From an uncultured virus (IMG/VR IMGVR_UViG_3300028593_000715) (lineage: Duplodnaviria > Heunggongvirae > Uroviricota > Caudoviricetes), in IMG/VR virus record IMGVR_UViG_3300028593_000715: a stretch of DNA of 64,000 bases; one strand, written 5' to 3'. The notes beneath the pieces were generated by a model. The model was not told where the DNA came from and did no database searches. It was given only the letters and a program-made list of their open reading frames with translations. The position numbers and the translations under genes are program-made. Of the stretch, positions 209 to 61,194 are shown one piece after another. Each line of letters begins with the position of its first letter. Positions within the stretch are counted from its first letter, which is position 1.

Positions 209-1119
209 GTCAAGTCCTCCATATCGCTGATACCGAGAATACCCGTGATCTGCTCCAAAATACGGTCAATATCCGCATTTAGGCTTGCACGCTTCTCCTG
301 ATACTGCTGAATCAGCTCCTTCGGAGGGAGTATTTCTTCTTCCTCATGGGGAAAACCGCAGAGGTCAATGTTATAATTTCTCTCAGCAAGCTCCTCAGCC
401 GTGTACTTTTTCGCCTTATCAAAGCCGTCAATGGTGATCTCCTGTCGGTCGCTCCACCACTCAACAGCAGGAGCAAAGTGTTCGAGCTTCATCGGCTTGG
501 TCTTGGAGAAGTTCTTGTACCCATCGGGCATATCCAGACGATAGAACCATGTTTCCTTAGTTGAGCCTGTTCTGTCAAAGAACAGGATATTGGTGGTGAT
601 AGAGGTGTACGGAGCAAAAACGCTGTGCGGCATACGAATGACCGTGTGCAGGTTGAACTCGCTCATTAGCTTCTTTTTGATAGCGACCTTTGCATTATCC
701 GTACCGAACAGGAAACCGTCAGGGAGAATGACCGCAGCTCTGCCGTTCTGCTTCAGGCGATACATAATGACCGACATGAACAGGTCAGCAGTCTCACTGC
801 TTGCGAGATCGGACGGAAAATGATTCTTGACTTCATTCTTCTCGCTGCCGCCGTATGGTGGATTCATCAGAACAACGTCAAACTGATCGTCCTCAGTATA
901 GTCGAGAACGTCTTTTAACAGCGAATTATCGTGATAGATACGAGGGGTATCAATATCGTGCAGGAGCAAATTCGTCACGCACAGCATATACGGGAACTGC
1001 TTTTTTTCGATACCGTAAACCGAGGTGTCAAACGCAGCTCTGTCCTCAACGGTCTTTTTCTGCGATTCAAGGGCTTTGAGCCAACTAATGATAAATCCGC
1101 CCGTACCGCAGGCAAAGTC
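205..1119 (-). pseudogene. hsdM: Type I RM methyltransferase HsdM, 3' fragment (interrupted by prophage)
   Basis: DFACGTGG motif I, NPPY motif IV and a typical HsdM C-terminus; the first about 30 aa of the called ORF are prophage-derived. Confidence 0.95.
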
Positions 1120-1144
1120 TATTGCCGTTGCTATTTTGATACAA
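1118..1144. other. Left attachment junction: TC core plus 25-bp phage arm
   Basis: Minus strand ttgtatcaaaatagcaacggcaata-GA-ctttgcc; the arm is an imperfect inverted repeat of 60595-60619. Confidence 0.9.
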
Positions 1145-1207
1145 TTTAACGCATACACGAAAAATGCACCCAACGGGTGCAAATGTAGCCGTTGGGTGCA
1201 TAAGGGC

Positions 1208-1248
1208 AAAAAAGAACGGCACTACGCCAGTTTTAGCGCAGTGCCGTT
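1208..1248 (-). terminator. Intrinsic terminator after left-end cargo operon
   Basis: AACGGCACT...AGTGCCGTT stem followed by a T-run on the minus strand. Confidence 0.65.
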
Positions 1249-1257
1249 ATATTTTTA

Positions 1258-1656
1258 TTATTCATCGGAATCATCATCTTCTTTTTGTTCCGGATGAACA
1301 TACGTCTCCCTAATCCATGTCTCTTGCAATTCTAATTCTCCATCGTCATTTTTCTTCCAACGGTGGCCAAGATATCCTCTGCGCGGACCGGGGCTTTTAG
1401 GCGTTCCACCAATGCCATCTGATATGTCAGAATTTTGTTCTTCCTCCATTATATCGTCAATGGCTTCATCAGAATCAGAAAGCGGATTGAATGGTGGCTT
1501 ATCATCGTCATTATCGAATCCGTGTCCGTTTGATTCAGAACCACTTTTTCTTATTTGTTCTTCTGCTGCAATTCCAATAAGAGTTAATAGCCCAATGCCG
1601 ATTTCTTTTCTGTACTTTATTGCACCTTTTCCTAATTTCTTAGCCCCTCTTCCCAT
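1258..1656 (-). CDS. Hypothetical acidic protein with one hydrophobic segment; probably the -1-frame continuation of 1662-2267
   Basis: Frame stays open upstream past an A6 run at 1699-1704. Confidence 0.55.
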   Translation of the reverse strand: MGRGAKKLGKGAIKYRKEIGIGLLTLIGIAAEEQIRKSGSESNGHGFDNDDDKPPFNPLSDSDEAIDDIMEEEQNSDISDGIGGTPKSPGPRRGYLGHRWKKNDDGELELQETWIRETYVHPEQKEDDDSDE

Positions 1657-1661
1657 AGCAC

Positions 1662-2267
1662 CTAATATGCTCTTAAATCGCTTAACAGCATTGGATTCTT
1701 TTTTGTGGCCTTTGTCCCGGTAGCAGCCGCTTCAGGTGGAGTTGCTTTTTTCGCTGTCGTTGATTGTTTTTGCGGCGAACTGTCAGACTTGGTCTTTTCA
1801 GTTTTTGGCTCTGGCGTTCTTTTCTCTTCCGCCGGCTTGTTCTGTGGCTCCTCCGAGGGAGATTCAATCGGTATTAGAGCTTCTTCGGGGTGAAAATTAA
1901 TGTAGTCATCGGGAGGGAATTTGCTATAATCATACACATCGAAATCATAAAATATCTTTGTGTCTGGATCATAATACCAGTTCGTTACAGTTTGCCAATT
2001 TCTTTTATGTGCTTCAAAATGTTCCTCTAGCGATAGGAGTTGAATATTATCTGCATCACCTTGATTATCAGGGAAACCGCTGACGCTTTTCATATGCTGA
2101 CCAATAAAGGCTTTTCCATCGGCATCATATACCTTGCCTTTAGTGATGAGCTGTTCTCGTTGCTCTGGTGTCCAATTTCGTGAGCCTTTTCCAGCAAGAA
2201 CAAGTTCCCGCTCGCGCGCCCATGCTTTTCTGATTGCTCTGTTACAAGCAGCATTATCTCTTGCCAT
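1662..2267 (-). CDS. Tox-GHH-like (HNH-fold) nuclease toxin domain protein
   Basis: KAWARERELV..GKGSRNWT..Q...L...GKV...F.GQHMKSV...P pattern; adjacent SMI1 immunity gene. Confidence 0.7.
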   Translation of the reverse strand: MARDNAACNRAIRKAWARERELVLAGKGSRNWTPEQREQLITKGKVYDADGKAFIGQHMKSVSGFPDNQGDADNIQLLSLEEHFEAHKRNWQTVTNWYYDPDTKIFYDFDVYDYSKFPPDDYINFHPEEALIPIESPSEEPQNKPAEEKRTPEPKTEKTKSDSSPQKQSTTAKKATPPEAAATGTKATKKNPMLLSDLRAY

Positions 2268-2271
2268 AGGA

Positions 2272-2721
2272 TCACTCTCCCATGCCGAGATAGTCATAGA
2301 GACCATTTAAGAATGCAAAGAAGTCATCGTATACTTCCTCTTCTTCAATTTTACCTTCCTCTTTATTATAAATTGAAATGGTTTCTGCATCCTTTTTTAT
2401 CAATACAGGATCACCATTCGGCGTTCCGCCAATCACAACGTAACTGTCATCAGGTCTGGTCTGATTGTTAACATCAATAAGGGGCTTATGTGCAACACCA
2501 TAAAACTGAACACTTGCGGGTAAAAAACATTCACCACCGTCAGAAAATAGCAACCACTCTCTGAATTTAGAAGGGAAAGAAAGATTGTTATTCTTTTCGA
2601 AGTCAGAGATTTGCTCTTCAGTAGCTGCCTCGAAAAAGTCCATTTCACTCTCAGTTTGCTGGCCTTGATTTTTGAGCGTTTCAATGATAGCTTTCAACTC
2701 TTCTGAAACCATACATATCAC
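2272..2721 (-). CDS. SMI1/KNR4 (SUKH) family immunity protein
   Basis: ATEEQISDFEK..NLSFPSKFREWLLFSDGG and C-terminal DDFFAFL pattern. Confidence 0.85.
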   Translation of the reverse strand: MICMVSEELKAIIETLKNQGQQTESEMDFFEAATEEQISDFEKNNNLSFPSKFREWLLFSDGGECFLPASVQFYGVAHKPLIDVNNQTRPDDSYVVIGGTPNGDPVLIKKDAETISIYNKEEGKIEEEEVYDDFFAFLNGLYDYLGMGE

Positions 2722-2746
2722 TCCTGTTCAAGTAGTAAACGACAAG

Positions 2747-4441
2747 TTAACCTAATAACGAACGAAGTTGCTCTGTTAGCAACTCTTTCCGTTTATCATA
2801 AAAAGAGCCGAAACTACCTATTTCCAAAGATACTCCATCTGGAATAAGAGCTTGTCTTAGAAATACTGCTTTTTGCTCGTCGTTCATGTCATTATAGTAT
2901 TCAATCAAAGGCATATCATTTTTACTGCCATTGCTCCTGCCTTCCAAAAGCTGTAAATTCGGCAGGCGGTTTCTATTCCCTCTCCAGATTTTCCAATCTT
3001 CCATAGTGACACCAGCAGGCTTACTCATATCAAAACGGTCACTTGGATGAAGATGATCCTGTTCATATTTAAAGTTTTTATTTACCCATTCAAGGCTGAG
3101 ATAATACAATGCTTCTCCTGCAACTCTGCTGCCCTTTTCAGAATTGATGATATCTTCTATTTTACCATCGGTTACACGCAAATCAGTAATCTGATCAAGC
3201 ATATCAATTGTAATCTCGTAGTCATAGCTGTTTATATAGCTCTTCATTTGCTGTAGCTTGCTCGTTGTTCCTGACTGGAAGTATGTAAATAATATCGCCC
3301 TCATCAAGTATGCGCGGATATCTTCACAGTTATTATTGTAATCTGGGTTGTAGTATATGAAATATAGAATAGGCAGCAATACATTCCAACTACCAGAAAA
3401 TCTGCTTACTTCGATTTTCATGCTCTTTAATACAGCTTCAAGAGCCTTCAATGCTTTTTCAAAGTCACTCCAATTGTTTTTTAGATCATTTGCTATTTGT
3501 TTGTTGATATTGGATTTTACAACATCACCATAGAGCATAAGAGCAGAACGAACAATGAAATCCGATCCAAAATCTTTATAAGAATCAACAAGAAGCTTTC
3601 CAAATTCAGATTTAGCACTCGGCCAGTATGCTTCAAGAATAGACATTGTAATCTCAGCCTTCTTCAGAGCCTTTCCGCCGCTGTTGAATCTTACAAACAT
3701 TTCAAGTGCATCGTCCTGCTTCATATCTTGAATTTCAGTAAATCTTATGAGCTTTTCAACACATATTTTTTCGTAGAGCTTCTTCAGGATATTTCTGGCA
3801 TACTCTTTACTATCAGATGGAACATTGGCAATAGCATCTTCAATAGCCTGCTCTCTTGTTTCATCAGATTGAAATCTGTCCTGAAGGATATTCCTAATTT
3901 CAAATTGGGTGGGACTGAGCCTTCCGACTTTTTCGCTGAATTTGATATCAAATTTCTTACTGTTATATTCTTCTTCGTCAACCGACAGTTTATGCTTATT
4001 AAGCTCTATAAGTAATTTTGTGAGAGTGCCGCCTTTGGTGTTTTTGCGAGCGTGTTTCTGCCGAATATACGCTGTGCCGAAAAGCGAGAGATAAAGCGAT
4101 GTCAGACGCTGCTGACCATCAAGGATGGCGGTATCAGTGATACTTGTGTTTATGCTTGAAAGCTCATAATTGGGACTATCAGACTGTTTGCGGCTGTCAA
4201 AAGTAACTTCGGAAAGAAAATCACAAAAGTAGGTATCCGAAGATACATTGTTTTCATCTACGTGCCAAAACAAAAATGTAGCTATAGGGTAGTCAAGAAG
4301 AATGGAATCCCATAGTTTTTCTATCTGTTCCATGCTCCAGACATACTGTCTCTGAAATGCAGGCATGACATATTTCCCGGCTTTAATGTTTTTCATAGCC
4401 TCGATTATTGTAATGCTGCTGTCATTAAGAACGCTCATCAA
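2747..4441 (-). CDS. DUF262/DUF1524 GmrSD-like modification-dependent restriction protein
   Basis: PAFQRQYVW and LDGQQRLTS motifs; C-terminal DHLHP...NLQLL...N.SKND HNH-like motif. Confidence 0.85.
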   Translation of the reverse strand: MMSVLNDSSITIIEAMKNIKAGKYVMPAFQRQYVWSMEQIEKLWDSILLDYPIATFLFWHVDENNVSSDTYFCDFLSEVTFDSRKQSDSPNYELSSINTSITDTAILDGQQRLTSLYLSLFGTAYIRQKHARKNTKGGTLTKLLIELNKHKLSVDEEEYNSKKFDIKFSEKVGRLSPTQFEIRNILQDRFQSDETREQAIEDAIANVPSDSKEYARNILKKLYEKICVEKLIRFTEIQDMKQDDALEMFVRFNSGGKALKKAEITMSILEAYWPSAKSEFGKLLVDSYKDFGSDFIVRSALMLYGDVVKSNINKQIANDLKNNWSDFEKALKALEAVLKSMKIEVSRFSGSWNVLLPILYFIYYNPDYNNNCEDIRAYLMRAILFTYFQSGTTSKLQQMKSYINSYDYEITIDMLDQITDLRVTDGKIEDIINSEKGSRVAGEALYYLSLEWVNKNFKYEQDHLHPSDRFDMSKPAGVTMEDWKIWRGNRNRLPNLQLLEGRSNGSKNDMPLIEYYNDMNDEQKAVFLRQALIPDGVSLEIGSFGSFYDKRKELLTEQLRSLLG

Positions 4442-7923: not shown

Positions 7924-8097
7924 TTACCTCTGTTCCGGCTGTAAGTCAACGAATAATGTGCCGATTTTAGGTTGGTATTTCTCAATGAACATTGTATCAA
8001 TCTGACGATATTCATCCTCCGAAATCAGCCCGTCACGGAGCATCTTCCGTGCGATGCTCATGGTCGCCTGATACATCATTTCACTCTGAAAGTCCAT
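7924..8097 (-). CDS. Small SHOCT-like protein of the recombinase module
   Basis: MLRDGLISEDEY motif; position upstream of the recombinase pair. Confidence 0.7.
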   Translation of the reverse strand: MDFQSEMMYQATMSIARKMLRDGLISEDEYRQIDTMFIEKYQPKIGTLFVDLQPEQR

Positions 8098-8467
8098 GCC
8101 GTTCACCTCCGAATCGGGACTGCAAATAGCACTGACGGCTGCAATACTTCCTATGATCGTTGCCGTATGCCTGAAAAGGTTCTCCGCAACAGGCGCAGGT
8201 GAAATCATAAATAGCTCTGCGGTTCACATCATCCTTATGCGCATACCACCACTTCATCCTGCATTTGTCAGAGCAGAACTTCTTTTGCCGGGTGCGCGGC
8301 GGCTGTATAATAGGAGTGCCGCAGCAATAGCAAAGACGGCTATCCTTATTTCGGGTGCAGAATGATTTGACCGTGTTTACGGATAGTTCAAGCGCAGCGG
8401 CAATCTTACCAAATGACTGTCCCTCGGAGCGCAGACGGATAATATCTGCCTTTTGTACATCTGTCAT
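8081..8467 (-). CDS. HTH plus zinc-finger protein (candidate excision regulator)
   Basis: N-terminal HTH; KFCSDKCR and KYCSRQC motifs. Confidence 0.75.
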   Translation of the reverse strand: MTDVQKADIIRLRSEGQSFGKIAAALELSVNTVKSFCTRNKDSRLCYCCGTPIIQPPRTRQKKFCSDKCRMKWWYAHKDDVNRRAIYDFTCACCGEPFQAYGNDHRKYCSRQCYLQSRFGGERHGLSE

Positions 8468-8770: not shown

Positions 8771-9955
8771 TCATGCCTTATTCAGTTTTCCGCTGTATTT
8801 CTTCCCGTCCACAGTGACCTCAACCGTGATGCCTTCATCGGCAGCAGGCGCAGGCGGATTCGGCAGGACTTCCTCCTTGCCGTAGCCGTTCAGCCCCTTC
8901 GCCCTGATGATCGTGGGAAAGTCCTTGTAGCCGATGTCCAGATCGACATTGCCGCTGATGCCTGCAACCTTGCCCTTCTCGGAATGCTGCCAGATGCCGT
9001 ATGCACCGCCGTAGTTGGTCTGGTCGCACCAGTGCGCCAGCCAGATTGTATACCACGATTTGATGTCATCAGCGGTGTGCGTCATGAGCGAGGATGCAGA
9101 ACCGTAGAGACCGACGAAGTATCCCGCTGCCTCCACTCTTTCAAGGAACGCCCGCATAATGGCAGACACCTTTTCCTTGCCGAGGTCAAACTGCTTTTTC
9201 TCCTCAAGGTCAAAATAGACCGGGAACTCAAACTGCTTTCCCTTGATGACGGACAGGAATACATCCGCCTCCTGCCTTGCCTCGTCCTCGTCCATAGCGT
9301 AGGAATACCAGTACGCACCGACCGGAATGCCAGCCGCCTTTGCGCCTGCGTAGTTGTCCTCGAAACGCTCGTCTTTCTGCTTTGCTAGCTTGCCGAAACC
9401 AGCACGGAGAATGGCAAAGCTGATGCCGTCAGCCCTGACCTTCTGCCAGTCAATTGCACCGTTGTGCGCACTCACGTCAATGCCCTTCATATCCTCGCCT
9501 CCGAAATATTCATAGAAATTATCGGTCACGCTGCTGTTGCCCTGCACCTCGTCGCCGTACCACTTTTTGCCGGAGCGCACGTCAACGTGTGTATAAATGT
9601 AGGCAGGCGTGATGTTGGCGATACCGCCGAAGCCGATGTCCTGTGCCTTGCAACAGACGGTCTTGCTGCTAATGGGCTGTCCGTCCTGCCCATAGCAGCA
9701 GATGTCCGCTGCCTTGCCGAGTGTATGCTGTCCCGTGCCGCTGCCCTTGACTGCCTTATCATGAGCAGCACAACGGAAACCGGATGTCACGATGATCTTG
9801 GAGCAATTGAGGGCTGCATAGAGCGTCTCCAGCTTGGTGATGAGATCATCGTCGATCTGAAAATCATGTTCCTTGCCACATTTGCAGCGGAACTCCTGCG
9901 CATTAAAGTGCGGAGAAAGCTGCGTGTTATCGGTATAGCCGTAGGTCTTAATCAT
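8771..9955 (-). CDS. Endolysin: peptidase M15 plus GH25 muramidase
   Basis: SGFRC..H....SGTGQH.LGKAADI..HVDVR (M15); GIDVSAHNG and YFDLEE (GH25). Confidence 0.9.
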   Translation of the reverse strand: MIKTYGYTDNTQLSPHFNAQEFRCKCGKEHDFQIDDDLITKLETLYAALNCSKIIVTSGFRCAAHDKAVKGSGTGQHTLGKAADICCYGQDGQPISSKTVCCKAQDIGFGGIANITPAYIYTHVDVRSGKKWYGDEVQGNSSVTDNFYEYFGGEDMKGIDVSAHNGAIDWQKVRADGISFAILRAGFGKLAKQKDERFEDNYAGAKAAGIPVGAYWYSYAMDEDEARQEADVFLSVIKGKQFEFPVYFDLEEKKQFDLGKEKVSAIMRAFLERVEAAGYFVGLYGSASSLMTHTADDIKSWYTIWLAHWCDQTNYGGAYGIWQHSEKGKVAGISGNVDLDIGYKDFPTIIRAKGLNGYGKEEVLPNPPAPAADEGITVEVTVDGKKYSGKLNKA

Positions 9956-10376
9956 CGTTATCATCCTTTCTCCCTGCCTGTTTTTGCAGGACTTCAATGG
10001 CATTTTTCAGTGCGGGCGGATACGGAATGCCCATGAGCGATGTGTTTTCCACGATGGAAAGCAGCTCGTTTACGCAGAATGCAATGCACACCGCATCACG
10101 CACATAATTCGTATTGAGCAGAATATCCAGACGCACCGCCACAATAATGAGCATGAGAATGCTGCCTTTCTTCGCAAGCCCGTACCAGCCCGCCTTGCTG
10201 TTGAGCTTGCCGGACTTGCTGTGCTTGGACTTGCCCATAGCTCCGGTAATCATTCCGGTTGCAAAGTCAATGCCCATGAAGATGATGAGCGTCACCAGCG
10301 CAGAATCCCAGCCCCCGAACAGGGCTGCAATTCCGCCGCCGATTGCGCCGATCACCGTACAAATGCTTCCTTTCAT
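9948..10376 (-). CDS. Phage holin
   Basis: FGGWD..L..LIIFMGIDFATG and NELLSIVEN; next to lysin. Confidence 0.9.
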   Translation of the reverse strand: MKGSICTVIGAIGGGIAALFGGWDSALVTLIIFMGIDFATGMITGAMGKSKHSKSGKLNSKAGWYGLAKKGSILMLIIVAVRLDILLNTNYVRDAVCIAFCVNELLSIVENTSLMGIPYPPALKNAIEVLQKQAGRKDDNDD

Positions 10377-11044
10377 GTCGTCACCTCCAGTACCTTAACA
10401 GCCCGAATCATCGGGTGTGTGTTGTCCGTCACCGCTTTCCAAGCGAGATAATAGTCGTCAGCAGATACACTGCCGCAGTCGTGCAGCACGGTGATGAAGT
10501 TGCCCACAGAGCCGAGCCAGCCGAACGGAATGGAAATTGCCTCGCCGCCGCTGAGCTTTTCGTGAATGTATCTTGCCGTTTCCGCTGGCGACATCTGCTG
10601 ACTGCTCTTGCGCACCAGCCACATTTCACCTGCATCGGTCGAGCCAGACTTGTAGGTAAGCAGAATCCTGCTTGCAGGTGTGATGCGTACCGGAGTGATA
10701 CACATCGTATAAATGACAGCACCCCAGTTAAAGTCCGGCTGATTGTAGTAAAGCGAGTAGTCATTCTCCGCACAGCAGAAATGTGGATACACATCCGCAA
10801 AGCCCGCAATGCTGCGGTAGCCGTCAATATAAAAAGTGTAGATGCTCTCACCATATGTAGTAAGAGCATCATTGCCGTTGCGGAACAGCGCCACCTCCGG
10901 TTTGCCGGACGGGATCTGCAGCACCTTTGGCACAAGGGTATTCAGCTTTTCGGACTCCGATGCCTGCACACCCATTGTTACAAGGTTCCGGGCAAGCTGA
11001 TCGCGCTGCGCATCCAGCGCCGTCAGATAATTTGCAATGCTCAT
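10373..11044 (-). CDS. Hypothetical tail-associated protein
   Basis: Coupled ORF between tail and lysis genes. Confidence 0.65.
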   Translation of the reverse strand: MSIANYLTALDAQRDQLARNLVTMGVQASESEKLNTLVPKVLQIPSGKPEVALFRNGNDALTTYGESIYTFYIDGYRSIAGFADVYPHFCCAENDYSLYYNQPDFNWGAVIYTMCITPVRITPASRILLTYKSGSTDAGEMWLVRKSSQQMSPAETARYIHEKLSGGEAISIPFGWLGSVGNFITVLHDCGSVSADDYYLAWKAVTDNTHPMIRAVKVLEVTT

Positions 11045-13601: not shown

Positions 13602-13604
13602 ATA

Positions 13605-48235: not shown

Positions 48236-48298
48236 ATCGTCACATCCTTATAGCAACAGAGCCCAGCCGCATGGTATTGGGCTGGACTCCGGAGTCAA

Positions 48299-48859: not shown

Positions 48860-48863
48860 AGTA

Positions 48864-50298: not shown

Positions 50299-50395
50299 GT
50301 TTAAGGGCCTCCTTTGTCAAATTTTTTGCCAGTCTTTTCGATACGATGCTAATTGCAAGCAGGGTATCCACAAGTTCCTGAGTCTTTGCATTCAC
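50219..50395 (-). CDS. Small hypothetical protein
   Basis: GGAGGTGA RBS and GTG start; LLAISIVSKRLA. Confidence 0.5.
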   Translation of the reverse strand: MNAKTQELVDTLLAISIVSKRLAKNLTKEALKHGSDDGTGKCAECAHCRAAEVHAADH

Positions 50396-50418
50396 GGTTC
50401 ATCACCTCCCTCTACTTT

Positions 50419-50450
50419 CCAATGGAAAGCTGATGGTCGATTTGACGAAG
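50419..50450 (-). promoter_or_regulatory. Putative phage-sigma promoter, copy 3
   Basis: CTTCGTCAAA-N12-TTTCCATTGG. Confidence 0.6.
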
Positions 50451-50455
50451 GATTT

Positions 50456-50935: not shown

Positions 50936-51190
50936 AAAAACCTCCGTTCGATTAGGAACGGAGGCATAAACCGGCTGCAAAATGGGCGCAAAAACCCAGA
51001 CCGCATTCGGGAAGGAATTACTCCGTTCCTGATTGCGGCCGCCAGCGCAAAAGGCAGCCTTTCATATTTAATTCAGACTGAGATTACCCATTGCGCCACC
51101 GCTGATCAGACAGTGCAGATAATCTCGGTAAGCAGTTTTTTGTCATGCTTGGGACAATGCTATTGACTTTTCCTTGCCTATGGTGTAAAA

Positions 51191-51541
51191 TCAAGGTAGG
51201 TATATTGGTGGAAGCACTGGCAAGCCGTTATAACGGCAACAGAGATTATATCCTGCAAGCAAGGCTTGACCTACTGCATAGCCGAGAACTGTCTCGAAAC
51301 CGCCATGCATACCTAAACCACCTTGATTACGCGGGATGCCTATGTTCGACATCAGGGCTACATCATAAGCGGCTCCATGAAGTTGATTCATGGGCAAACC
51401 CGTGGAAGCGTATGGATTTTCATAGCCAGCTTGAATTTGAAACCATTTCTGTTGAATTGCAGCGTTTACGCATGAGGCGAATTCTGCTGGAGTGGCTGGC
51501 AGTGACTGCCTACCTAATGGAAACGAAATATTGTACATCAT
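51191..51541 (-). CDS. Hypothetical protein
   Basis: AAGGAGGT RBS upstream of ATG. Confidence 0.55.
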   Translation of the reverse strand: MMYNISFPLGRQSLPATPAEFASCVNAAIQQKWFQIQAGYENPYASTGLPMNQLHGAAYDVALMSNIGIPRNQGGLGMHGGFETVLGYAVGQALLAGYNLCCRYNGLPVLPPIYLP

Positions 51542-51697
51542 TCCGAAGTACCTCCTTATATTTTAGTGGTATTGTGACCACCTGCTAACATTATTGCATA
51601 TTTTTGATTTCCTTGCAGGATCGCATCGGAACTTTTCGGAACATTTCGGAATTACCACGAATTCTTCATACGGACACAAACGAAAGGCCGTGAGTAT

Positions 51698-52591
51698 ATG
51701 AATCTTATAGAACTGATAGAAATAATGAGAAGATACTATTCTGGTATAGAAAAGAAATCAAAATACAACTTTTTTATGCTATTGGTTGACAATGCTATAA
51801 CTGACGATGTTTCAAATCCATTCGATGGTCTCCAACCCGAAACAATACAACGCCAAGTCAATGGGAGTATTAGGTTTAAAAAGGCTAGGCTGGAAGGAGT
51901 TTTAGCATCAAAAGATTCTAAAAGACTTAGATTATTTATCAAGGAGCATTATCCAGAAGAACAGCAGTGTGATATGGAAAAAGAGATTCAAGACCAGCTT
52001 CCTGATTTCAATTGTGAAGAGCATGATTTTGTGTATTCGTGTTCCGAATTATTTTATAGCTTAGTTCGCCAATATATTGATAATAAATCAAATATACCAT
52101 CCAAGTCTCGTAAAAAGGTCCAATCATCTACTCCTGATGGCATAATAGATGCTTTTGAGAAGACATATAAAAAGGAAATATCGCTCCCAAATGTTCTTTC
52201 AGGAATCAGATCAGAAATATGGAAGGAAATAGATGCAATCATTAATACTTGCAAATCTTTCAAGCGGAAAACCGAGGAGTTAAATCGCGCCATTACCATC
52301 TTGAATAATGCAAGAGTTGAAAATGATCAAGCAAAGTTCGATTCGAATTATCCTACATACGACAAGCTGCGTGATGAGAACGAGTCTCTATTTAACGAGA
52401 TTTTCCGAAAGTGGGGGCATCTTTACAAAACATATGCTAATATCATAGAAATTCGAGAGATTACTCGTATTGACTTTGCACACTCAGTCTTAACACCGCC
52501 AGAAAACAAACTGATTCATATAGCTGGTGATAATACGGATAATTTTATAGAGAAACTTAGGCAACTCTCTGAGGACTACCTATTTACTTAA
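51698..52591 (+). CDS. Hypothetical protein (possible regulator or defence protein)
   Basis: 297-aa AT-rich ORF divergent from the early operon. Confidence 0.7.
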   Translation: MNLIELIEIMRRYYSGIEKKSKYNFFMLLVDNAITDDVSNPFDGLQPETIQRQVNGSIRFKKARLEGVLASKDSKRLRLFIKEHYPEEQQCDMEKEIQDQLPDFNCEEHDFVYSCSELFYSLVRQYIDNKSNIPSKSRKKVQSSTPDGIIDAFEKTYKKEISLPNVLSGIRSEIWKEIDAIINTCKSFKRKTEELNRAITILNNARVENDQAKFDSNYPTYDKLRDENESLFNEIFRKWGHLYKTYANIIEIREITRIDFAHSVLTPPENKLIHIAGDNTDNFIEKLRQLSEDYLFT

Positions 52592-52825
52592 CCTATGCCA
52601 TCTGCTCCCAGTATACTGCAAGGCATAAAAAATAACCATCAAGTAACACTTGATGGTCGAAAATGGCGCAAAAAGGGGCTATTCCACTTATTCCAATCAA
52701 AGGAATCAGCGGAATAGCCCCTAAATATGTTATAGAGCATCAAGTGGCACTTGATGCTGAAAAGCACATAATCATCACTTTCTGCGTTTTGCACAAATCT
52801 GCTTAGCAGTAGCTGTACATTATTA

Positions 52826-54742
52826 CTACGAATCCAATTCGCATAGAGTTACCTTTAGTTTTGCCTGATTAAGGTACATTTGCCAGCGTTCTATAGTCTC
52901 ATCCGTATGCTCGTCTACGAGCCATCTGAAGAACCTGCCTTCCATTGTATTTGGAAAATCCATACCGATTTTCTTCATCAAGTCATAGCAATATTCTTTG
53001 TTAAGATTCAGGCCAATAAACAGTTTTAGCAAGGTGTGGAAAGAGACAGTCTTGTCCGTCTTATTGCGCAGTTCGCTAATTGTCTGCGTACTGAGGTTTG
53101 AACGTTCACTCAGCATCTCCGCAGTAAGTCCTTTGCGGGTAATATGGTAGTCGACAGTTTTATGGAATGAACCGGGCAGTTCATCGAAATCGCTTTCAAA
53201 CTGTTGCGACAGCTTAACAATTTCTGCAATGGCAGCAGCCTCTTCCTCGGTCAATTGGTTCTTGGCGAGTTCGGCATCATACTCCGCTTCGAGCAAGGAG
53301 TCAGCTGTGACCTCACGGCACAAAAAGCAGGCACGATAAAACGAGTCATCATAATCAAACTTGATGCGCTTTTTACAGGTGAATAGGAAACAACATTCAT
53401 CGACATGATCCAGTGCATACTGCGTCATTTCTGGATGCTCTTCATCATTGAACTGAATATACTTTGGTGAATTTATACAGAGCATATTGTTTACGAAAAC
53501 AATCCTGCTCTCTTTATAGAGGGCATCCAGAGCCGGGTGCGTTATAATCATGCGTAGTGCACTGATAGAATCTACTACGAAACTGCCGTTTTTGCCAATG
53601 ATCTTAGAACCAAAGGAGAAGTGGGGGATGGACTTTCCTTCTATGTATACATATGTACCATGTGCTTGTTCAAAGCCCAACTCAATAGCGCGGAGTTTGG
53701 CTGCAAGTCGGGAAACCTGAAAGAAATCAGCGGTATCCTGAATTGCCTGAGCCATTACTTCCGCATCTCTGGTGCTTGCTGGCATACACTGACGCAAATC
53801 ATGAAGTCGATCTTGAATGAACTTTTTAGTAGTAGATGCGGGCATCAGGATTTTCGGAGCAAGGGTGTTTGCCTGCCACTCGATCCACTCCAGTGGGGTC
53901 GATTTTGCTTTATCTTTTCCATACGCTTCAACAATCTCGCAAGATACAAAACGGTATTCTTGCCTCAGTAAGCGCATCAGTTCAAAAAACATTTTGTGTC
54001 GCTTCCAATGTACACACTCATGAATAATCGTATTATTCATCGTTCCGATATTGTACATAAAAAACACATCTGGATTCACCAGCATAGTTCCCGGCGGCAC
54101 TGTAATTTCCTCAGTTTTCGGATATTTGTTGCCTTTATATACCGTGACCGTGGAAGTCACAAAATATGTTTTACCGAAAATGTTATCATCCAGCGGCGCA
54201 AGATACAACTTCATTCCCAGATCACTGACAATTTCCTGTATAGGCAGCGGCATGGCTGTATCCAATGCCTTTGCACAATGGTCGCGCAGGAAATCTTCCG
54301 CTACTTTATCAGCATCTTCGCTGTAGAGATAAGGGACAAGGTAATGATCGAGAGCGGTTTCTTTATCAAACTTCTCTTTACTGTACTCTTCCACATGAAC
54401 AATCCTAACGCCATGCAGTCCATCCTTCAATATGCCCTCAAAATATACGGACATCCAAACTGACTTTGAATCTGATTCATAATCATAACGAGATTTGCCA
54501 GATACAATGACATCGGCATTAATGCTTAAACGGAAATGCAGAGCATCACCTCCGGGCGTCTTAAAAGTCGCTCCCATAACATGATAGTCGTCCAATTCAA
54601 ATTTGCATACATCCGGAATAAGATTTGTTGACAGAAACGAAGATCCTTTTTTCTGAAATAAGAAACTGTTGATCTTTTTATATATTGCATCATAGTAATT
54701 ATCGTACATATACTCTTCAAAAGTATGGTAAGTCTTCATCAT
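52826..54742 (-). CDS. ImmA/IrrE-like metallopeptidase with C-terminal XRE HTH
   Basis: IIHECVH and EWQAN..A..ILMP motifs; C-terminal HTH. Confidence 0.85.
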   Translation of the reverse strand: MMKTYHTFEEYMYDNYYDAIYKKINSFLFQKKGSSFLSTNLIPDVCKFELDDYHVMGATFKTPGGDALHFRLSINADVIVSGKSRYDYESDSKSVWMSVYFEGILKDGLHGVRIVHVEEYSKEKFDKETALDHYLVPYLYSEDADKVAEDFLRDHCAKALDTAMPLPIQEIVSDLGMKLYLAPLDDNIFGKTYFVTSTVTVYKGNKYPKTEEITVPPGTMLVNPDVFFMYNIGTMNNTIIHECVHWKRHKMFFELMRLLRQEYRFVSCEIVEAYGKDKAKSTPLEWIEWQANTLAPKILMPASTTKKFIQDRLHDLRQCMPASTRDAEVMAQAIQDTADFFQVSRLAAKLRAIELGFEQAHGTYVYIEGKSIPHFSFGSKIIGKNGSFVVDSISALRMIITHPALDALYKESRIVFVNNMLCINSPKYIQFNDEEHPEMTQYALDHVDECCFLFTCKKRIKFDYDDSFYRACFLCREVTADSLLEAEYDAELAKNQLTEEEAAAIAEIVKLSQQFESDFDELPGSFHKTVDYHITRKGLTAEMLSERSNLSTQTISELRNKTDKTVSFHTLLKLFIGLNLNKEYCYDLMKKIGMDFPNTMEGRFFRWLVDEHTDETIERWQMYLNQAKLKVTLCELDS

Positions 54743-55212: not shown

Positions 55213-56283
55213 ATGGCAAAGAGTAAAAAGCTGCCTATTGGGGCTGTTAGTTTGTTTTCTGGTGCAGGTGGTCTTGATGTTGCAAGTTTCCTTGCTGGTG
55301 TTCCTGTTTTATCAAGCACAGATTTTGATGATGACTGTATTGAGACACTCAAACTGAACGACTTGTACGGAGATACAGAAATAATAAAAGGTGATCTTCA
55401 TGAAATTTCTAGTGATGTTTTCAAGTCGATAGTTCAGAAAAGAAATCCGGAAAAGTTCATCGTTATTGGTGGTGCACCGTGTCAGCCATTTTCTAAAGCC
55501 GGATACTGGGTTGGCAATAGTACCCGTAAAGGAATAAACGATCCAAGAGCAACTTTAGTAGACGAATATTTACGTGTTGTAACAGATTTACATCCGGCAG
55601 GATTTGTTTTTGAGAATGTTGAAAGTTTACTTCATCCTACAAACAAAGTTATTGTTGACAAATTTATCGAGATCATTCAACAACAAGGTTACAAGTACAA
55701 GATTGTTCGTGCTAATGCTCTTGATTATGGAGTATCACAAAAAAGAAAAAGGTTATTCATTATTGGAACGACTGGTGAATTCAAATCTGAAGCACCTCGA
55801 AAAACAAACTGTCCGCCAGAGGAATGTGAAGCAACAGGTCTTAAGCCTTATGTTAATGTCGGTGAAGTGATTAGTGGCTTTGACGGTCCAGAATTCTTTG
55901 AGCCGGAAGAAGTCACCAAAGGCGGCACATATCATTCTGATCTGTGCGAGGTTCCTCCAGGAATGAATTATAAAGCACTGACCGCATGGTATGGCTATGA
56001 AAATCCTAAATTTGTTGCCGACAAAAGATTTTGGAGTTTCCTGCTGAAGTTGTCACCTGATATGCCTTCGTGGACAATTACAGCGCAACCGGGTCCTTGG
56101 GTTGGACCTTTCCATTGGGATAACAGACGTTTAAGAGTGCCAGAGATTGCAGCTATTCAAACTTTCCCAAAAGGATATAAGTTTTATGGTAGCAGAAGAT
56201 CTATCCAGAAACAAATCGGCAATGCTGTGCCATCGTTAATGGGTAAGGCAATGATAGAATTTCTGAAGGAGAGTTTGGAATAA
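55213..56283 (+). CDS. C5 cytosine DNA methyltransferase 1
   Basis: FSGAGG, PCQPFS, ENV and QIGNAV motifs. Confidence 0.95.
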   Translation: MAKSKKLPIGAVSLFSGAGGLDVASFLAGVPVLSSTDFDDDCIETLKLNDLYGDTEIIKGDLHEISSDVFKSIVQKRNPEKFIVIGGAPCQPFSKAGYWVGNSTRKGINDPRATLVDEYLRVVTDLHPAGFVFENVESLLHPTNKVIVDKFIEIIQQQGYKYKIVRANALDYGVSQKRKRLFIIGTTGEFKSEAPRKTNCPPEECEATGLKPYVNVGEVISGFDGPEFFEPEEVTKGGTYHSDLCEVPPGMNYKALTAWYGYENPKFVADKRFWSFLLKLSPDMPSWTITAQPGPWVGPFHWDNRRLRVPEIAAIQTFPKGYKFYGSRRSIQKQIGNAVPSLMGKAMIEFLKESLE

Positions 56284-57344
56284 TGGCGATAAATGTACTA
56301 AGTATATTTTCCGGCGGTGGTGGTATAGACTGTGGCTTCCGTAAAGCAGGATTTGAAATTGCTTTTTCTACTGATTTCTGGGAGCCCGCATGTCAGACAC
56401 TTGAAAAAAACCATAGTAGTAAGCTGGTTAAGTGCTGCGATATACGAAAAGTAAATTATGAACAAGAATTAGCTTCAATTGGGATGAAGCTTTCTGATAT
56501 TGATGTATTAGCAGGAGGCCCGCCGTGTCCTGCTTACTCAAAATCTAGATTTTACAGAACAGATAAGAAACGAGCATTGGAAGATGAGAACTCATTTACT
56601 CTTTACGAGTACTTCCGTGCACTCGAAGAAATACGTCCGAGAGTTTTCTTTTTCGAGAATGTCTTTGGCTTTGTTTATAAGCCACACAAAGCAGCATTCG
56701 ATTTGCTGAAAGAGCGAGCAGATACACTCGGCTATGACATTAGTTTCAAAGTGATAAACACTGCAAACTATGGTGTTCCACAGATTCGAGAACGTTTCAT
56801 TTGTGTAGGAATAAAGCGAGGCTTCGGTTCTCCTTTCGTTTTTCCTGACGAAACACATTATAATCCTGAAAAAGGAACTCCACTTGACAGCAATATGCGT
56901 CCGTGGGTAACTTGTGGAGAAGCTATAGGTGATTTAGATTATGATCTTCCCGAGGACGTGAATATGCAAGCAGGCTCAAAGCATAAAGACCTTCTGAAAC
57001 TTGTGCCTCCGGGAGACAACTATCTTTACTTCACTGCGGAAAGAGGCTATCCGAATCCGATTTTTAAGTGGCGTTCGCGTTATTGGTCGTTTTTACTTAA
57101 ATTGTCTCCGGAAAAGCCATCATGGACGATACAGGCAAGTTTTTCAAATAATATGGGACCGTTCCACTGGAAGAATAGATTCCTCAGAATTAATGAAATT
57201 AAACGTATACAAACTTTCCCTGATGACTATGAATTCTGCGGAGATTTCAGAGATCAGTGGCGTCAAATCGGAAATGCAGTTCCGCCTCATCTTGTTGAAC
57301 AGATTGCATCTGAAATTGAAAAACAATACTTTACTGAAAAATAG
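56283..57344 (+). CDS. C5 cytosine DNA methyltransferase 2
   Basis: FSGGGG, PPCPAYS, ENV and QIGNAV motifs. Confidence 0.95.
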   Translation: MAINVLSIFSGGGGIDCGFRKAGFEIAFSTDFWEPACQTLEKNHSSKLVKCCDIRKVNYEQELASIGMKLSDIDVLAGGPPCPAYSKSRFYRTDKKRALEDENSFTLYEYFRALEEIRPRVFFFENVFGFVYKPHKAAFDLLKERADTLGYDISFKVINTANYGVPQIRERFICVGIKRGFGSPFVFPDETHYNPEKGTPLDSNMRPWVTCGEAIGDLDYDLPEDVNMQAGSKHKDLLKLVPPGDNYLYFTAERGYPNPIFKWRSRYWSFLLKLSPEKPSWTIQASFSNNMGPFHWKNRFLRINEIKRIQTFPDDYEFCGDFRDQWRQIGNAVPPHLVEQIASEIEKQYFTEK

Positions 57345-57355
57345 GGAGGTAAAAA

Positions 57356-58897
57356 ATGGCTGAATACTTATGGGCAAAAGCTGATGGCCAGATAATAGGA
57401 GCAGAATATAATCCCAGTACAGACACATTAAAAAACGACCAAGTACAGAATATTCTGCAAAATGCATTCACTCAATTTGGTCATACTGCGACATGTAAGC
57501 CAGTGAGCAGCGATTTTGGCGAAGTTTATGAGATAATCTTAGACGGAGATACCGCAAAGCCAATTTATGTCTGTGCAAAAGGAACAACTCCCGGAGGTAG
57601 AGATAATTTAAAAGACGAGCAGCGCATTCAACAGAAAAAAGAACAGATTAATAAGGCATTTGATCTTTCTCAAAAAGGGTATCGTACTATACACCTTGGA
57701 GTCTATAGAAGAGAAAGTCAAATAATCTTTTGCGCATGGCTTTTGAAACACTCAGATGCAGCTCCGAATTCACCTGTATCGAAACAGATTAAAATCAAGA
57801 CAATTGCAGATGCCATGAAGAAAGGTTTTGTAACACAAGAGAAGAAAGACAAAGCTGGGATGGAACTGGCATGTGCTTTTAGAAAAGAGTTCCTGTTCTT
57901 CTATCTTGAAAATTTCCGGTGGTTTCATAAGAAACCTATAACCACATTGACATCTCATACCACACCCTTACCGGATAAAACATTTACTGGATTAAGGAAG
58001 GGGGAAAACATTTTATTATATGGTGTCCCCGGGTGCGGAAAAAGTCATACGATAAAGACGGAATTCTGTGATGATGAGAAATATATGGAAAGAGTCGTAT
58101 TCCATCCAGACTATACTTCTTCAGATTTTATTGGCCAGATAATGCCAACAAATATTGATGGCCACATAAGCTATCCTTTTGTCCCGGGACCATTCACTCG
58201 TATTCTAAAAAAAGCCATCGCTGATAGCCAGCACGAGTATTTCCTTATTATCGAAGAAATAAACCGCGGTAATGCGCCGGCAATTTTCGGAGAAGTATTT
58301 CAGCTTTTGGACCGTAATGAAGGTGTCAGTGAATACGGAATATCTAATGCAGAAATTGCAAAAGAAGTGTATGGCGATGCAACCAAAATGGTAAAAATAC
58401 CTTCAAACCTATTCGTTCTTGCAACAATGAATACCGCCGACCAGAACGTATTCACACTCGATACAGCATTCAAGCGTCGTTGGTCAATGCGCAGCATAAA
58501 GAACGATATCGCAAACTGCGAGTATGCAGATAAAACTATATGCGGAACAACAGTTACATGGCGTTTCTTTGCTGAAACTATTAATGAACTTATCATCAGA
58601 CTTGGACAGAATAGTTTAAGCAGTGAGGATAAAAGGCTGGGTGCATATTTTGCCCGAGAAACCGAATTGAATAACACTTCCGCATTTGCTGAAAAAGTTC
58701 TTATGTATTTGTGGAATGATGCCTTTAAATATGACCACTCTGCCGTTTTTAAACCAGAATACACTACATTAGAGCAATTAATTGCGGGGTTCAAATCACT
58801 TCATTTCGGAGTTTTTCTTGATTCAATTGGGTTTGGTAATCCTGATTCGGAAACCGCATCAAACACTGACGAGCAGCAAGATCAAGGTGAAACCTGA
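57356..58897 (+). CDS. McrB-like AAA+ GTPase (LlaJI R1-like)
   Basis: GVPGCGKS, IIEEINRGN, MNTADQN and DTAFKRRW motifs. Confidence 0.9.
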   Translation: MAEYLWAKADGQIIGAEYNPSTDTLKNDQVQNILQNAFTQFGHTATCKPVSSDFGEVYEIILDGDTAKPIYVCAKGTTPGGRDNLKDEQRIQQKKEQINKAFDLSQKGYRTIHLGVYRRESQIIFCAWLLKHSDAAPNSPVSKQIKIKTIADAMKKGFVTQEKKDKAGMELACAFRKEFLFFYLENFRWFHKKPITTLTSHTTPLPDKTFTGLRKGENILLYGVPGCGKSHTIKTEFCDDEKYMERVVFHPDYTSSDFIGQIMPTNIDGHISYPFVPGPFTRILKKAIADSQHEYFLIIEEINRGNAPAIFGEVFQLLDRNEGVSEYGISNAEIAKEVYGDATKMVKIPSNLFVLATMNTADQNVFTLDTAFKRRWSMRSIKNDIANCEYADKTICGTTVTWRFFAETINELIIRLGQNSLSSEDKRLGAYFARETELNNTSAFAEKVLMYLWNDAFKYDHSAVFKPEYTTLEQLIAGFKSLHFGVFLDSIGFGNPDSETASNTDEQQDQGET

Positions 58898-60135
58898 TGT
58901 TAAGAGAAATATGTAAACTTGTGTCGTATGATGATGATTTTGTTGGACTCCATTTTATTGATAATAAGCCAGAAGTAGTGTTTCCACGTGGTTATTCAAT
59001 ATCAATAGATGATGATGATGTCCGGCGAGATATTCTTAGCCTGTTATCTGCAATTCAAAAGTATAGCGGTCAATGTAAAGGCAACAAGAATACAATGGAA
59101 AATGGAGATAATACTCTTGACTTTCCTATTTTATCATACCAATACATTATTCTTGATTTTCTTCAGAACGGCTACTATACTGAAAAAGAGGTGCGTTATG
59201 TTGAAGCACCTAAAGGCAAAATCAACTGGAAAAGAACTATTCAAATGGAGAAGCCACATTTAGATGGTGACAACATTGTTTATTTGAAATTTATTGTTAA
59301 GACGAATCAAATAAAACATGATCATTTGCTTACCCTTATTCATGAGTACTGCGTTTATGAAAGCTTTCGAAGATTGGGCTGGCTTTATGTTACTAGCAGC
59401 GTTCTTCCTCAAAAGCCACGTTTACCTCTAAATAAGACTCTTTTCTTGTCGGTGTTAAACTCTGAGATAAGTCAGACCTTCAACGATAACAAGAAACGTC
59501 TTTTAAAAAGCATGATTAATATTATTACTGAAGCTTCTGAAAGTAGTGATGATAAAACTAAGGCAGCATTTGGTGTACAGCGATTTGAATATGTCTGGGA
59601 AGCAATGGTCGATTATGTTTTCGGTGAAGACAATCGGGAACAGTATTATCCCAAAGCGCACTGGTATATTGTAACTCCAAACGGCTTTAAGGTCGAAAGT
59701 AGCGAACTGCGCCCAGATACTATTATGAAGCACAATGGAAAAATCTACATTTTAGATGCAAAGTACTATAAGTATGGCGTAACAAGAATTCCTGCTCATT
59801 TACCAACTACTGATTCAATTCAAAAACAAATAACATACGGTGATTATATTGCTCAAAAAGGATTTGCCCCAAAAGAAAAAATCTTTAACGCCTTCATAAT
59901 GCCGTATTCCGGTTTAGGTAAAGATGCAATTCCATATAGTTTCGCAAGTGTAGGACTTGCCGATTGGCGTTCGTATGAAGCAAACCCGAACAACTATGAA
60001 TTTGTACTCGGCATACTTATGGATACTAAGCATCTCATCACTTCATATGTTAAACATAATATTGAGGAAATTGAACGACTCAGCTTATTTATCGAAGGCG
60101 CTCTCGATCAATACAAGCTGTCCCAAAGGAGTTAG
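58897..60135 (+). CDS. LlaJI-family (McrC-like) restriction endonuclease
   Basis: FVGL, FPRGY, GKINWKRTI, LRPDTI..LDAKYY and KQITY motifs. Confidence 0.88.
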   Translation: MLREICKLVSYDDDFVGLHFIDNKPEVVFPRGYSISIDDDDVRRDILSLLSAIQKYSGQCKGNKNTMENGDNTLDFPILSYQYIILDFLQNGYYTEKEVRYVEAPKGKINWKRTIQMEKPHLDGDNIVYLKFIVKTNQIKHDHLLTLIHEYCVYESFRRLGWLYVTSSVLPQKPRLPLNKTLFLSVLNSEISQTFNDNKKRLLKSMINIITEASESSDDKTKAAFGVQRFEYVWEAMVDYVFGEDNREQYYPKAHWYIVTPNGFKVESSELRPDTIMKHNGKIYILDAKYYKYGVTRIPAHLPTTDSIQKQITYGDYIAQKGFAPKEKIFNAFIMPYSGLGKDAIPYSFASVGLADWRSYEANPNNYEFVLGILMDTKHLITSYVKHNIEEIERLSLFIEGALDQYKLSQRS

Positions 60136-60138
60136 AAT

Positions 60139-60396
60139 ATGGATACACTTCCGTCAAAAAGTGAGTTAGCGGTTGTGGTTCTGGAGGTTCTTCAGGAACA
60201 AAGTCCTATGAAAACGGCTGAAATTAATGAAGCTGTTATCAAGAAAATGCAAATACCAGAACACCTACTTGAAATTGAAGATGCTAATTGCACCGGTTCT
60301 GAATTCAGCTATAGAATCAGATGGGCTCGCACACAGTTAAAACAAGAAGGCAAAATCAGTAATCCCGAACGCGGAGTATGGAAAATAAAAGAATGA
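60139..60396 (+). CDS. Stand-alone Mrr N-terminal-like winged-helix protein
   Basis: YRIRWARTQLK..G.I..PERGVW motif. Confidence 0.8.
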   Translation: MDTLPSKSELAVVVLEVLQEQSPMKTAEINEAVIKKMQIPEHLLEIEDANCTGSEFSYRIRWARTQLKQEGKISNPERGVWKIKE

Positions 60397-60400
60397 TGTG

Positions 60401-60435
60401 ATCGCCAAGTGGCTTATAACCACTTGGCGATTTTT
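60401..60435 (+). terminator. Terminator of RM operon
   Basis: ATCGCCAAGTGG...CCACTTGGCGAT plus T-run. Confidence 0.8.
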
Positions 60436-60549
60436 ACATTTTAACGAACACACTATAATTCAACGAACAGTCCCAGTTCGTTGAATTATGCACCCAGCCG
60501 CATTCAGCGTACAGGCGGCAGGACAAAAAAATAAGACCTTATCGGTCTG

Positions 60550-61194
60550 TCATTCGCAAAAAAGCCCAGAAATAGCGCCTATTTGCGGTATTCTTTGTAT
60601 CAATCTCGGAACTGCTTTATCCGCCATTTTCTCACCGATCACAGGGCGTATCATCTGAGCCATGAAATCGGTCACAGCACGGGGCGTGTAAAACTCACCA
60701 GCCGAGCCTGCACTCTGCAATTCTTTCAAGATAGACTCATAAATATCACCAAATGCGTGGCTTTCCTCATAATTGGTAAGGTCAAGCTCATCAATGACAT
60801 TGACTACCTGTCGGAGCAGAACACCGTCCTTCATGTAGTTGTTGGTGTCCTCAAATGTTGTCTTGACGATAGCCTTATTGATAGGCGTAGTCTTGGAAAC
60901 TTGTATGCCTTTCAGTGTAGGAAACAGCGTATTATTGACGAAATCAAGCAGATCATCGCCTGTTAGTGCTGTACCCTTGCCGTCATCTACTGCCCAATTA
61001 CGCCAGCGGCATTCTTCGGGAATGATAGACTCATAGGCATCATCATCAAATTCCCAATCTTCTTCCTTTGTGTCGTAAACCTTGAGAAACAGCAGCCAAG
61101 CGATCTGCTCGATACGCTGTGCATCACCGTTGATACCTGCATCGTTTCTCATAATATCCCGTAATCTCTTTACGAAATTACCTAAACTGCTCAT
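60550..61194 (-). pseudogene. hsdM: HsdM 5' fragment (192 host codons plus 22 prophage-derived codons)
   Basis: MRNDAG..GDAQRIEQ and AGEFYTPRAV motifs; HsdM-like sequence ends at EKMAD. Confidence 0.95.
60595..60621. other. Right attachment junction: 25-bp phage arm plus TC core
   Basis: ttgtatcaatctcggaactgcttta-TC-cgccat; mirrors the left arm. Confidence 0.9.

Follow-up and report, generated by a model that had tools for sequence, protein, structure and literature searches.

The 64,000-nt stretch of DNA analysed here (hereafter, the window) is the uncultured virus record IMGVR_UViG_3300028593_000715 of IMG/VR (Caudoviricetes). It contains a complete temperate siphovirus of 59.5 kb (window 1120-60619) that, with a probability of about 85%, is integrated into hsdM, the methylase gene of a Ruminococcus-type Type I restriction-modification (RM) operon, at the codons of motif I, the S-adenosylmethionine (SAM)-binding motif. 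According to this reading, recombination by a large serine recombinase (LSR) takes place at a GA dinucleotide core, the bacterial attachment site (attB) is defined by the DNA that encodes the motif, and the lysogen is left without HsdM.

The hsdM gene lies on the minus strand in two pieces, a 5′ one at 61194..60620 and a 3′ one at 1119..208. Read on that strand, the 5′ junction is ...GAG AAA ATG GCG GA followed by TAAAGCAG, with the core at window 60620-60621, and the 3′ junction is ...GGCAATA followed by GA C TTT GCC TGC, with the core at 1118-1119. The 5′ piece translates as the N-terminus of HsdM to ...GEKMAD, continues through 22 phage-derived codons and stops at 60550; the 3′ piece, from 1119, reads D-FACGTGGF... 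to the C-terminus (303 aa). Their Pfam matches are HsdM_N plus positions 3-55 of the N6_Mtase profile in the former and positions 50-299 of the same profile in the latter. Joined at the GA, the frame amounts to 573 nt + GA + 910 nt, i.e., 1485 nt or 495 codons, which is the uninterrupted 495-aa HsdM that an earlier reading of this DNA (the sequence-only reading) had put forward. When aligned with five intact homologues, the two pieces match up to and from D192, respectively (D192-FACGTGG in the 3′ piece), and neither a gap nor an extra residue is seen at the joint, as that reading had expected. The intact allele that it had looked to relatives for also exists, in the form of 495-aa homologues at 99% identity. 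In fact, among the 120 best homologues listed for the 3′ piece (7997 proteins scored), 117 are 479-499 aa long, identity reaches at most 99%, and several close homologues carry Ruminococcus methyltransferase names.

The GA core corresponds to the first two bases of the Asp codon D192 in SAM-binding motif I (D192-FACGTGG), and it is the sole identity common to attB, the phage attachment site (attP) and the two prophage junctions (attL and attR) at the joint, where there is no longer direct repeat. The two attP arms, of 25 nt each, both end in TTGTATCAA and agree as inverted repeats at 18 of 25 positions, with perfect 9-nt ends. The attB arms agree at 7 of 25, being less symmetric than those of attP and different in sequence. 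Both the prophage with LSRs and a 2-bp GA core and the symmetric attP arms with a perfect terminal repeat, which had been proposed from the letters of the window, are therefore borne out by the Pfam domains, the four attachment forms and the arm comparison. At the DNA level, excision rebuilds the 495-codon hsdM without a scar.

The four forms are also found in natural sequence data. The window itself holds attL and attR, and contigs from four public metagenome runs were compared with its positions 1-4000. For attB, a 3453-nt contig of sample X13 (sheep gut) matches window 1-1119 with one difference and continues with 30 letters equal to window 60622-60651, and the same attB DNA is present in the intact locus of a related genome (L102). 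For attP, a contig end of run X3 has 28 letters equal to window 60592-60619 directly before position 1118, that is, at the predicted dinucleotide joint. In the same run, attR is bridged by one contig (window 1-1147). The attB and attP joints that the sequence-only reading had drawn from the prophage ends are thus present in public contigs. Additionally, at least 95% of the junction words sampled are present in five runs, and an identical junction is carried by the independent contigs L121 and L128. The attP joint could stem from circles after excision, from concatemers formed during replication or from a double lysogen with tandem prophages, and each of these sources needs recombination at the GA core.

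The same codon is also reached by a sibling phage (L011), an attP arm of which encodes CIKLDTAT-D. This is the exact foreign N-terminus of a truncated HsdM (P0044, 335 aa) that departs from the full-length protein at D192, as does a second truncated form (P0012, 353 aa). As the arm of L011 and the foreign N-terminus of P0044 are the same, sibling phages are observed in the free state as well as inserted at that codon. A further protein (P0073, 410 aa) has a DUF4145-like N-terminus fused to this HsdM from G196 (GTGGF), the break being four residues away from the phage site; either a rearrangement or a chimera may account for it.

The arm of the phage recurs beside other methylase genes. A scan of public collections for the exact 27-nt arm plus core returned 12 metagenome and 6 IMG/VR loci (L124 being the record L131). 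In 17 of these 18, the arm is directly joined to an open reading frame (ORF) that starts with D-P/F-x-C-G-S/T, i.e., at the Asp codon of motif I of N6-adenine methylases. The 17 loci comprise 12 distinct host DNA sequences and 8 protein contexts, all of the host ORFs tested (9/9) begin at position 52 of the N6_Mtase profile, and the host methylases show 19-28% identity to this HsdM. The remaining locus (L132) resembles an attP, its right arm being a different one that was found in its own contig alone. The half-site common to the hosts reads GA-ycc-N4-TG-y-GG. Since one and the same arm meets the Asp codon of motif I in many divergent methylases, attB is the motif-coding DNA itself. On the phage side, identity to the window is 100% over 3144 nt in L128 and 99.8% over about 2 kb in both L124/L131 and L129, and these copies lie in three different methylase genes, which argues that the target is the motif and not one locus. 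The integrase target is thus the motif I-coding DNA of N6-adenine methylases, and it is not specific to this hsdM. Loose contig ends in X3 and X10 have the same arm beside further motif I-like sequences, as judged by hand translation.

More distant cassettes with other arms were also inspected, and 25 of their host-side ORFs were given to Pfam, of which 6 had no match. The N6_Mtase domain is broken at profile position 51/52 in four genomes (L023, L027, L032 and L057), the cassette of L044 breaks a type III Mod gene just before DPPY, and methylase targets were recognised by eye in L033, L045 and L018. One arm type (L033, L044 and L045) abuts ...K(C/M)IYI-D just before DPPY, and the free attP of L004 has an identical arm. 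Other targets of the cassette include Amidase_3 (L063), a DUF3427 helicase (L061) and further genes. For instance, three relatives with AA at the core position (L039, L050 and L052) lie in Mg-chelatase (ComM-type) genes, the target class reported as the commonest for LSRs, and three others (L058, L078 and L080) lie inside other LSR genes at DDG(Y/F)xGTNF, forming nested elements.

On comparative grounds, the integration module is a conserved SHOCT - LSR_A - LSR_B - attP cassette, and its attP ends in TTGTATCAA inverted repeats. In IMG/VR, 14 loci match a degenerate form of attP, defined by its TTGTATCAA ends, GA core and spacing, with an LSR_B-like gene beside the motif in 14/14 and an LSR_A-like gene in 13/14; the locus without the latter (L006) is merely 803 nt long. 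A scan of species-representative genomes with an alignment of LSR_B yielded at least 608 stretches that encode relatives, and 80 of them were kept for inspection. A separate LSR_A lies upstream in 65 of these 80 loci, and a SHOCT homologue is present in 42/80 genome loci and 8/14 viral loci. The YARVSTD motif is invariant in 13 LSR_B orthologues, and the catalytic-serine motif is kept in both LSRs. Among solved structures, the best match of both is 3g13, the N-terminal domain of a 'putative conjugative transposon recombinase' (E 9e-44 and 2e-45), and the structure of SprA from SPbeta is a weak match to the two (E 3.6e-12 and 2.9e-6). LSR_B is more conserved than LSR_A, and no LSR_A homologue is present in L042 and L078, whose upstream sequence is available and whose junctions carry the TTGTATCAA arm end. 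As LSR_B is thus the more conserved and occurs without LSR_A beside such ends, there is a weak hint that LSR_B may read the conserved outer arm. A 534-aa open frame antisense to LSR_B (4512-6116, plus strand) matches no family in Pfam; it probably does not represent a gene, and it was regarded as spurious.

The flanks of the phage form a Type I RM operon, hsdR-mrr-hsdM-hsdS, in which hsdR, hsdM (HsdM_N plus N6_Mtase) and hsdS are adjacent according to Pfam and, for hsdS, to the comparison with L102. In this last case, the 69 codons in the window translate into a sequence that hardly differs from the beginning of the 499-aa ORF located after the intact hsdM of L102. The mrr gene, with its Mrr_cat domain, is missing from L102, which is otherwise collinear. 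At the attR end of the phage, two terminator-like hairpins face outward. The terminator that the sequence-only reading had placed at 1208-1248 reappears as a pattern on the minus strand (1248->1215, with a stem of 15 pairs and then a run of T), and a second hairpin was added at 1181->1165. The arrangement by which hsdS would be cut off by a terminator was likewise found as described, as hsdS overlaps the stop of hsdM and sits behind these hairpins.

In the mechanism that we propose, the phage would integrate at the GA core in the D192 codon through LSR recombination, and both recombinases, or LSR_B alone, would catalyse the reaction together with a directionality factor, for which the conserved SHOCT protein is our guess. 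HsdR acts only in complex with M2S. As hsdM is interrupted, the integrated state would lack HsdM, and the lysogen should therefore carry out neither Type I modification nor restriction. Translationally coupled to hsdM, hsdS would probably be silent behind the phage-end terminators and is probably not transcribed in the lysogen. The defence of the lysogen could then be replaced by the LlaJI-like RM and GmrSD-type cargo of the phage, and excision would hand back an intact hsdM. Extending this to the other loci, we tentatively suggest, at clearly less than even odds, a phage lineage whose attB is the DNA of a universal motif I, so that in any host it would insert into, and turn off, the methylase of a Type I or related RM system, install its own RM and Type IV cargo, and return the gene intact on excision, with sister cassettes behaving likewise at other methylase motifs (pre-DPPY, type III Mod).

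Several points weigh against the integrated, HsdM-less state described above. The attP of this exact phage is represented by one short contig end in one run (X3). No split hsdM was found in species-representative genomes: in a family sample, 14 orthologues from 401 genomes include none split at D192 (13 have intact frames, and in the remaining one the frame is of 286 aa, its match to the query beginning at residue 46), and in a genus sample, 2 orthologues from 42 genomes include no gene split at that residue. We must therefore assume that the lysogenic state is a strain-level minority. The right arm plus core gave 0 IMG/VR contigs and, thus, the left halves of the other attB sites are unseen. 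No candidate for the directionality factor could be named from sequence, nor could the acting recombinase be assigned, as pairwise identities are flat for LSR_B (53-65% to all target classes) and 43-63% for LSR_A, which is too weak to assign specificity. Finally, the restriction- and modification-negative (r-m-) state of the lysogen for this Type I system is one that we infer, and a second copy of hsdM may lie outside the 64-kb window.

Why such a phage should use motif I can be explained in more than one way. The DNA of this motif might be a neutral landing pad, used only for its conservation among hosts and its location in dispensable genes, with the loss of RM being a tolerated by-product; to this we would give slightly less than an even chance. 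The relatives of the cassette that use other conserved coding motifs, in the Mg-chelatase/ComM, LSR, Amidase_3 and DUF3427 helicase genes mentioned above, are in keeping with such a pad, as is a large LSR survey, which reports that Mg-chelatase and competence genes are enriched as targets and that there is no enrichment in or near anti-phage defence genes (PMC10083194). By contrast, a neutral pad sits less comfortably with several separate arm types that all strike DNA methylase motifs (motif I of N6_Mtase, the type III Mod gene of L044 and the by-eye cases) and with replacement defence genes at both phage ends. Those same defence genes, which include the LlaJI-like RM and HEC-05/GmrSD, would be expected if integration had been selected for disabling Type I/IIG methylase-dependent restriction and substituting the RM and Type IV functions of the phage. 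Near-identical phage copies in at least three different N6_Mtase genes strengthen this anti-defence targeting, although they fit a conserved, dispensable landing pad equally. However, incoming DNA is already past restriction when integration happens, and phage released from an r-m- lysogen would carry no modification and would meet that same RM in siblings without the prophage, so that we regard selection for anti-defence as possible but clearly below even odds.

Scarless excision would also suit a regulated and reversible RM switch, in which the phage would leave without lysis on a host cue, RM would be restored and re-integration would follow, and precedents are described for comK (PMC4701971) and for sigK and spsM (PMC5499854, PMC5025042). 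Nevertheless, no cue, host-controlled directionality factor or sign of non-lytic excision was found in the sequence or contig data, and the element is, by gene content, a full lytic-competent phage. Furthermore, contig depth in X3, which is a weak measure, is greater on the phage side (15.3) than on the host side (9.4), and this fits phage replication better. Such a switch, as the sequence-only reading had proposed it, is, consequently, unlikely. Nor do the data examined here lend any support to the epigenetic role that this reading had raised. The logic of the arrangement alone might suggest addiction, with curing restoring restriction on an unmethylated chromosome and killing the cured cells. 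This is very unlikely, since the intact hsdM of X13, with one difference in 1119 bases, implies that the attB state is viable, and restriction alleviation generally allows Type I systems to become established on chromosomes that lack their modification. It is harder still to believe that the element is a cryptic, immobile remnant or that its junctions are products of chimeric assembly, given that the junction words recur in five runs, independent contigs bridge attR, L121 and L128 share the junction, the attP joint is seen, and the LSR genes and all virion modules are open.

The features of the window are collected in Table 1. The 59.5-kb insert has a full siphovirus gene set, in which both LSR genes and all virion modules are open. 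Its lysis and virion genes comprise an endolysin, a holin, Sipho_Gp37, Dit, a 1442-aa tape measure, head-tail connectors, an HK97-type major capsid protein, a ClpP-like protease, a portal and a large terminase. The region that follows includes an amidoligase, a ParB-methylase, a small terminase-like protein, HNH, sigma-like, VRR-NUC and Rha proteins and a 638-aa HTH protein, and it has a replication block with a family A DNA polymerase, a VapE primase-like protein, an SNF2 helicase, an ssDNA-binding protein and a DUF2800 nuclease. The nearest virus record (G001) is a 9.6-kb fragment without an LSR match.

Table 1. Features of the 64,000-nt window, with position, strand and the basis on which each was assigned.
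Feature	Position	Strand	Basis
hsdS 5′ end, 69 codons, runs off the window	2..208	-	ATG overlaps hsdM stop; comparison with L102
hsdM 3′ part, starts at codon D192	208..1119	-	Pfam; 99% identity to 495-aa HsdM proteins
Crossover dinucleotide GA at attR	1118..1119	-	Common to all four att forms
Phage arm of attR, 25 nt, outer end TTGTATCAA	1120..1144	-	Arm + core in 18 public contigs
Two terminator-like hairpins, phage attR end	1165..1248 (1248->1215, 1181->1165)	-	Pattern match only
Cargo between recombinases and attR: 132-aa ORF of no assigned kind, Tox-GHH nuclease-like ORF, SUKH immunity-like ORF, GmrSD_N/HEC-05 protein	1258..4441	-	Pfam, PADLOC
LSR_B, large serine recombinase, 531 aa	4596..6191	-	Pfam Resolvase + Recombinase + Zn_ribbon_recom
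LSR_A, large serine recombinase, 583 aa	6145..7896	-	Same three Pfam domains; AYARVS motif
SHOCT_2-domain protein, upstream of recombinase pair	7924..8208	-	Pfam
Lysis and virion genes	8771..32296	-	Pfam
Accessory, replication and regulation genes	32336..54742	-	Pfam, PADLOC
LlaJI-like RM: two C5 methylases, MTaX1-AAA_5 protein, LlaJI endonuclease, then small Mrr_N protein	55213..60396	+	Pfam; PADLOC MTase_II, REase_II
Terminator-like hairpin inside the phage, downstream of truncated hsdM 5′ ORF	60534..60548 (60548->60534)	-	Pattern match only
Phage arm of attL, 25 nt, outer end TTGTATCAA on + strand	60595..60619	-	Sequence comparison
Crossover dinucleotide GA at attL	60620..60621	-	Junction comparison
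hsdM 5′ part, M1 to D192	60620..61194	-	Pfam, translation, alignment
Mrr_cat restriction-endonuclease-like gene between hsdR and hsdM	61194..61817	-	Pfam
hsdR, runs off the window	61818..63998	-	Pfam ResIII, EcoEI_R_C, HSDR_N

The cargo between the recombinases and attR is of low GC content (0.36-0.43). Within its 1662-4441 region, the Tox-GHH nuclease-like ORF overlaps the SUKH immunity-like ORF, and the GmrSD_N/HEC-05 protein is at 2747-4441. Four relatives (L116, L126, L130 and L133) are without the Tox-GHH/SUKH/GmrSD cargo and have LSR_B about 0.8 kb from the arm. At the attL end, the LlaJI-like RM system is complete and also forms a low-GC cargo. Other genes stand out from their surroundings. 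For instance, MTaX1 and HNH_2 ORFs lie on the plus strand at 15662-16740, in a low-GC island between the Dit and tape-measure genes, and an ORF at 27676-28359, with weak HNH_3 and AP2 matches, resembles a homing-endonuclease insertion between the portal and protease genes. In the tail-tip region, a BspA-type LRR_5 protein (12249-13601) is possibly the receptor-binding protein, and an LRR_5 gene is the insertion site of one relative (L040). An Amidoligase_2 protein is found next to a GGACT/AIG2-like protein at 33532-35262.

For a two-integrase cassette that has yet to be characterised and is widespread among Firmicutes of the gut and rumen (at least 608 genome loci), all four att sites are thereby available in natural form, and an integrase site is seen to be definable by a protein motif that paralogues of only 19-28% identity have in common. 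A motif-defined attB explains how one phage may find landing sites in many hosts, and a short site of this type may also hold interest as a landing site that is programmable or portable. Lysogeny would be tied directly to the loss of host RM, and the gene flow and the methylomes of rumen and gut communities would thereby be changed. The phage would also be an exception to the lack of enrichment of LSR targets in defence genes that the survey reports.

Insertion into hsdM has been described for conjugative elements. In Streptococcus, integrative and conjugative elements (ICEs) with serine integrase triplets enter hsdM and interrupt it, with a repeat of 2-8 bp, and their authors speculated that such elements excise when the interrupted gene is needed (PMC4701971); Tn1806, with three recombinases, is in hsdM with a GGG repeat (PMC3055811). 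The Tn1806 family and the present phage share several adjacent LSRs at one element end, the site-specific disruption of hsdM, the same orientation of the integrases relative to the target and the possibility of cargo between integrases and target. This likeness is one of gene layout and target. The ICEs differ in being conjugative and in having three integrases and, for Tn1806, a GGG repeat, whereas the present element, a siphovirus, has two integrases and its core is GA. A literature search that did not extend to subscription papers and supplements returned no prophage in hsdM and no integrase site defined by methylase motif I; in PMC11318856 and PMC8637289, hsdM or methylases are mentioned merely as cargo or unrelated sites.

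Phages and elements that interrupt other genes offer a different likeness. In SPbeta/spsM, skin/sigK and A118-type/comK, LSR insertion also occurs inside a coding frame that is rebuilt exactly on excision, although each has one integrase, one locus and an excision tied to a developmental or intracellular programme, whereas the present phage has two integrases, its many target genes have a single protein motif in common, and no cue is known for it. The precise gene restoration on excision that characterises active lysogeny is, in our case, found at the DNA level only. Adjacent LSR pairs are also known from CcrA/CcrB, which move the staphylococcal cassette chromosome SCCmec into the methyltransferase gene rlmH (PMC6222049). 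However, this element enters the 3′ end of rlmH, leaves the gene functional and is not a phage; it is likened here by arrangement. Closer in layout are tandem-LSR prophages of Streptococcus and gut Clostridia in GenBank, which have the order lysis genes - recombinase - integrase - element end and 52-62% identity to LSR_B. They differ in that the records examined have no att annotation, and the literature search found no paper describing them, nor any behind the PV0364xx phage records.

Multi-targeting LSRs are defined by Durrant et al. 2022 as one LSR cluster (≥90% identity) found in over three clusters of target genes (50% identity) (PMC10083194). The phage resembles them at the level of the arm, as the same 27-nt arm is found in 8 contexts with 19-28% identity to this HsdM, the LSR genes being outside the 2-kb flanks compared. 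The multi-targeting clade is typified by DUF4368 and relaxed, often AT-rich sites (PMC10083194), whereas here one enzyme family is associated with one specific coding motif, and DUF4368 has no Pfam match in LSR_A or LSR_B. Site choice is, thus, predicted to be motif-specific rather than relaxed. The disruption of hsdM by multi-serine-integrase elements is already known from the ICEs; what sets the present element apart is that it is a siphovirus, that it has two integrases and that its site is defined by a motif.

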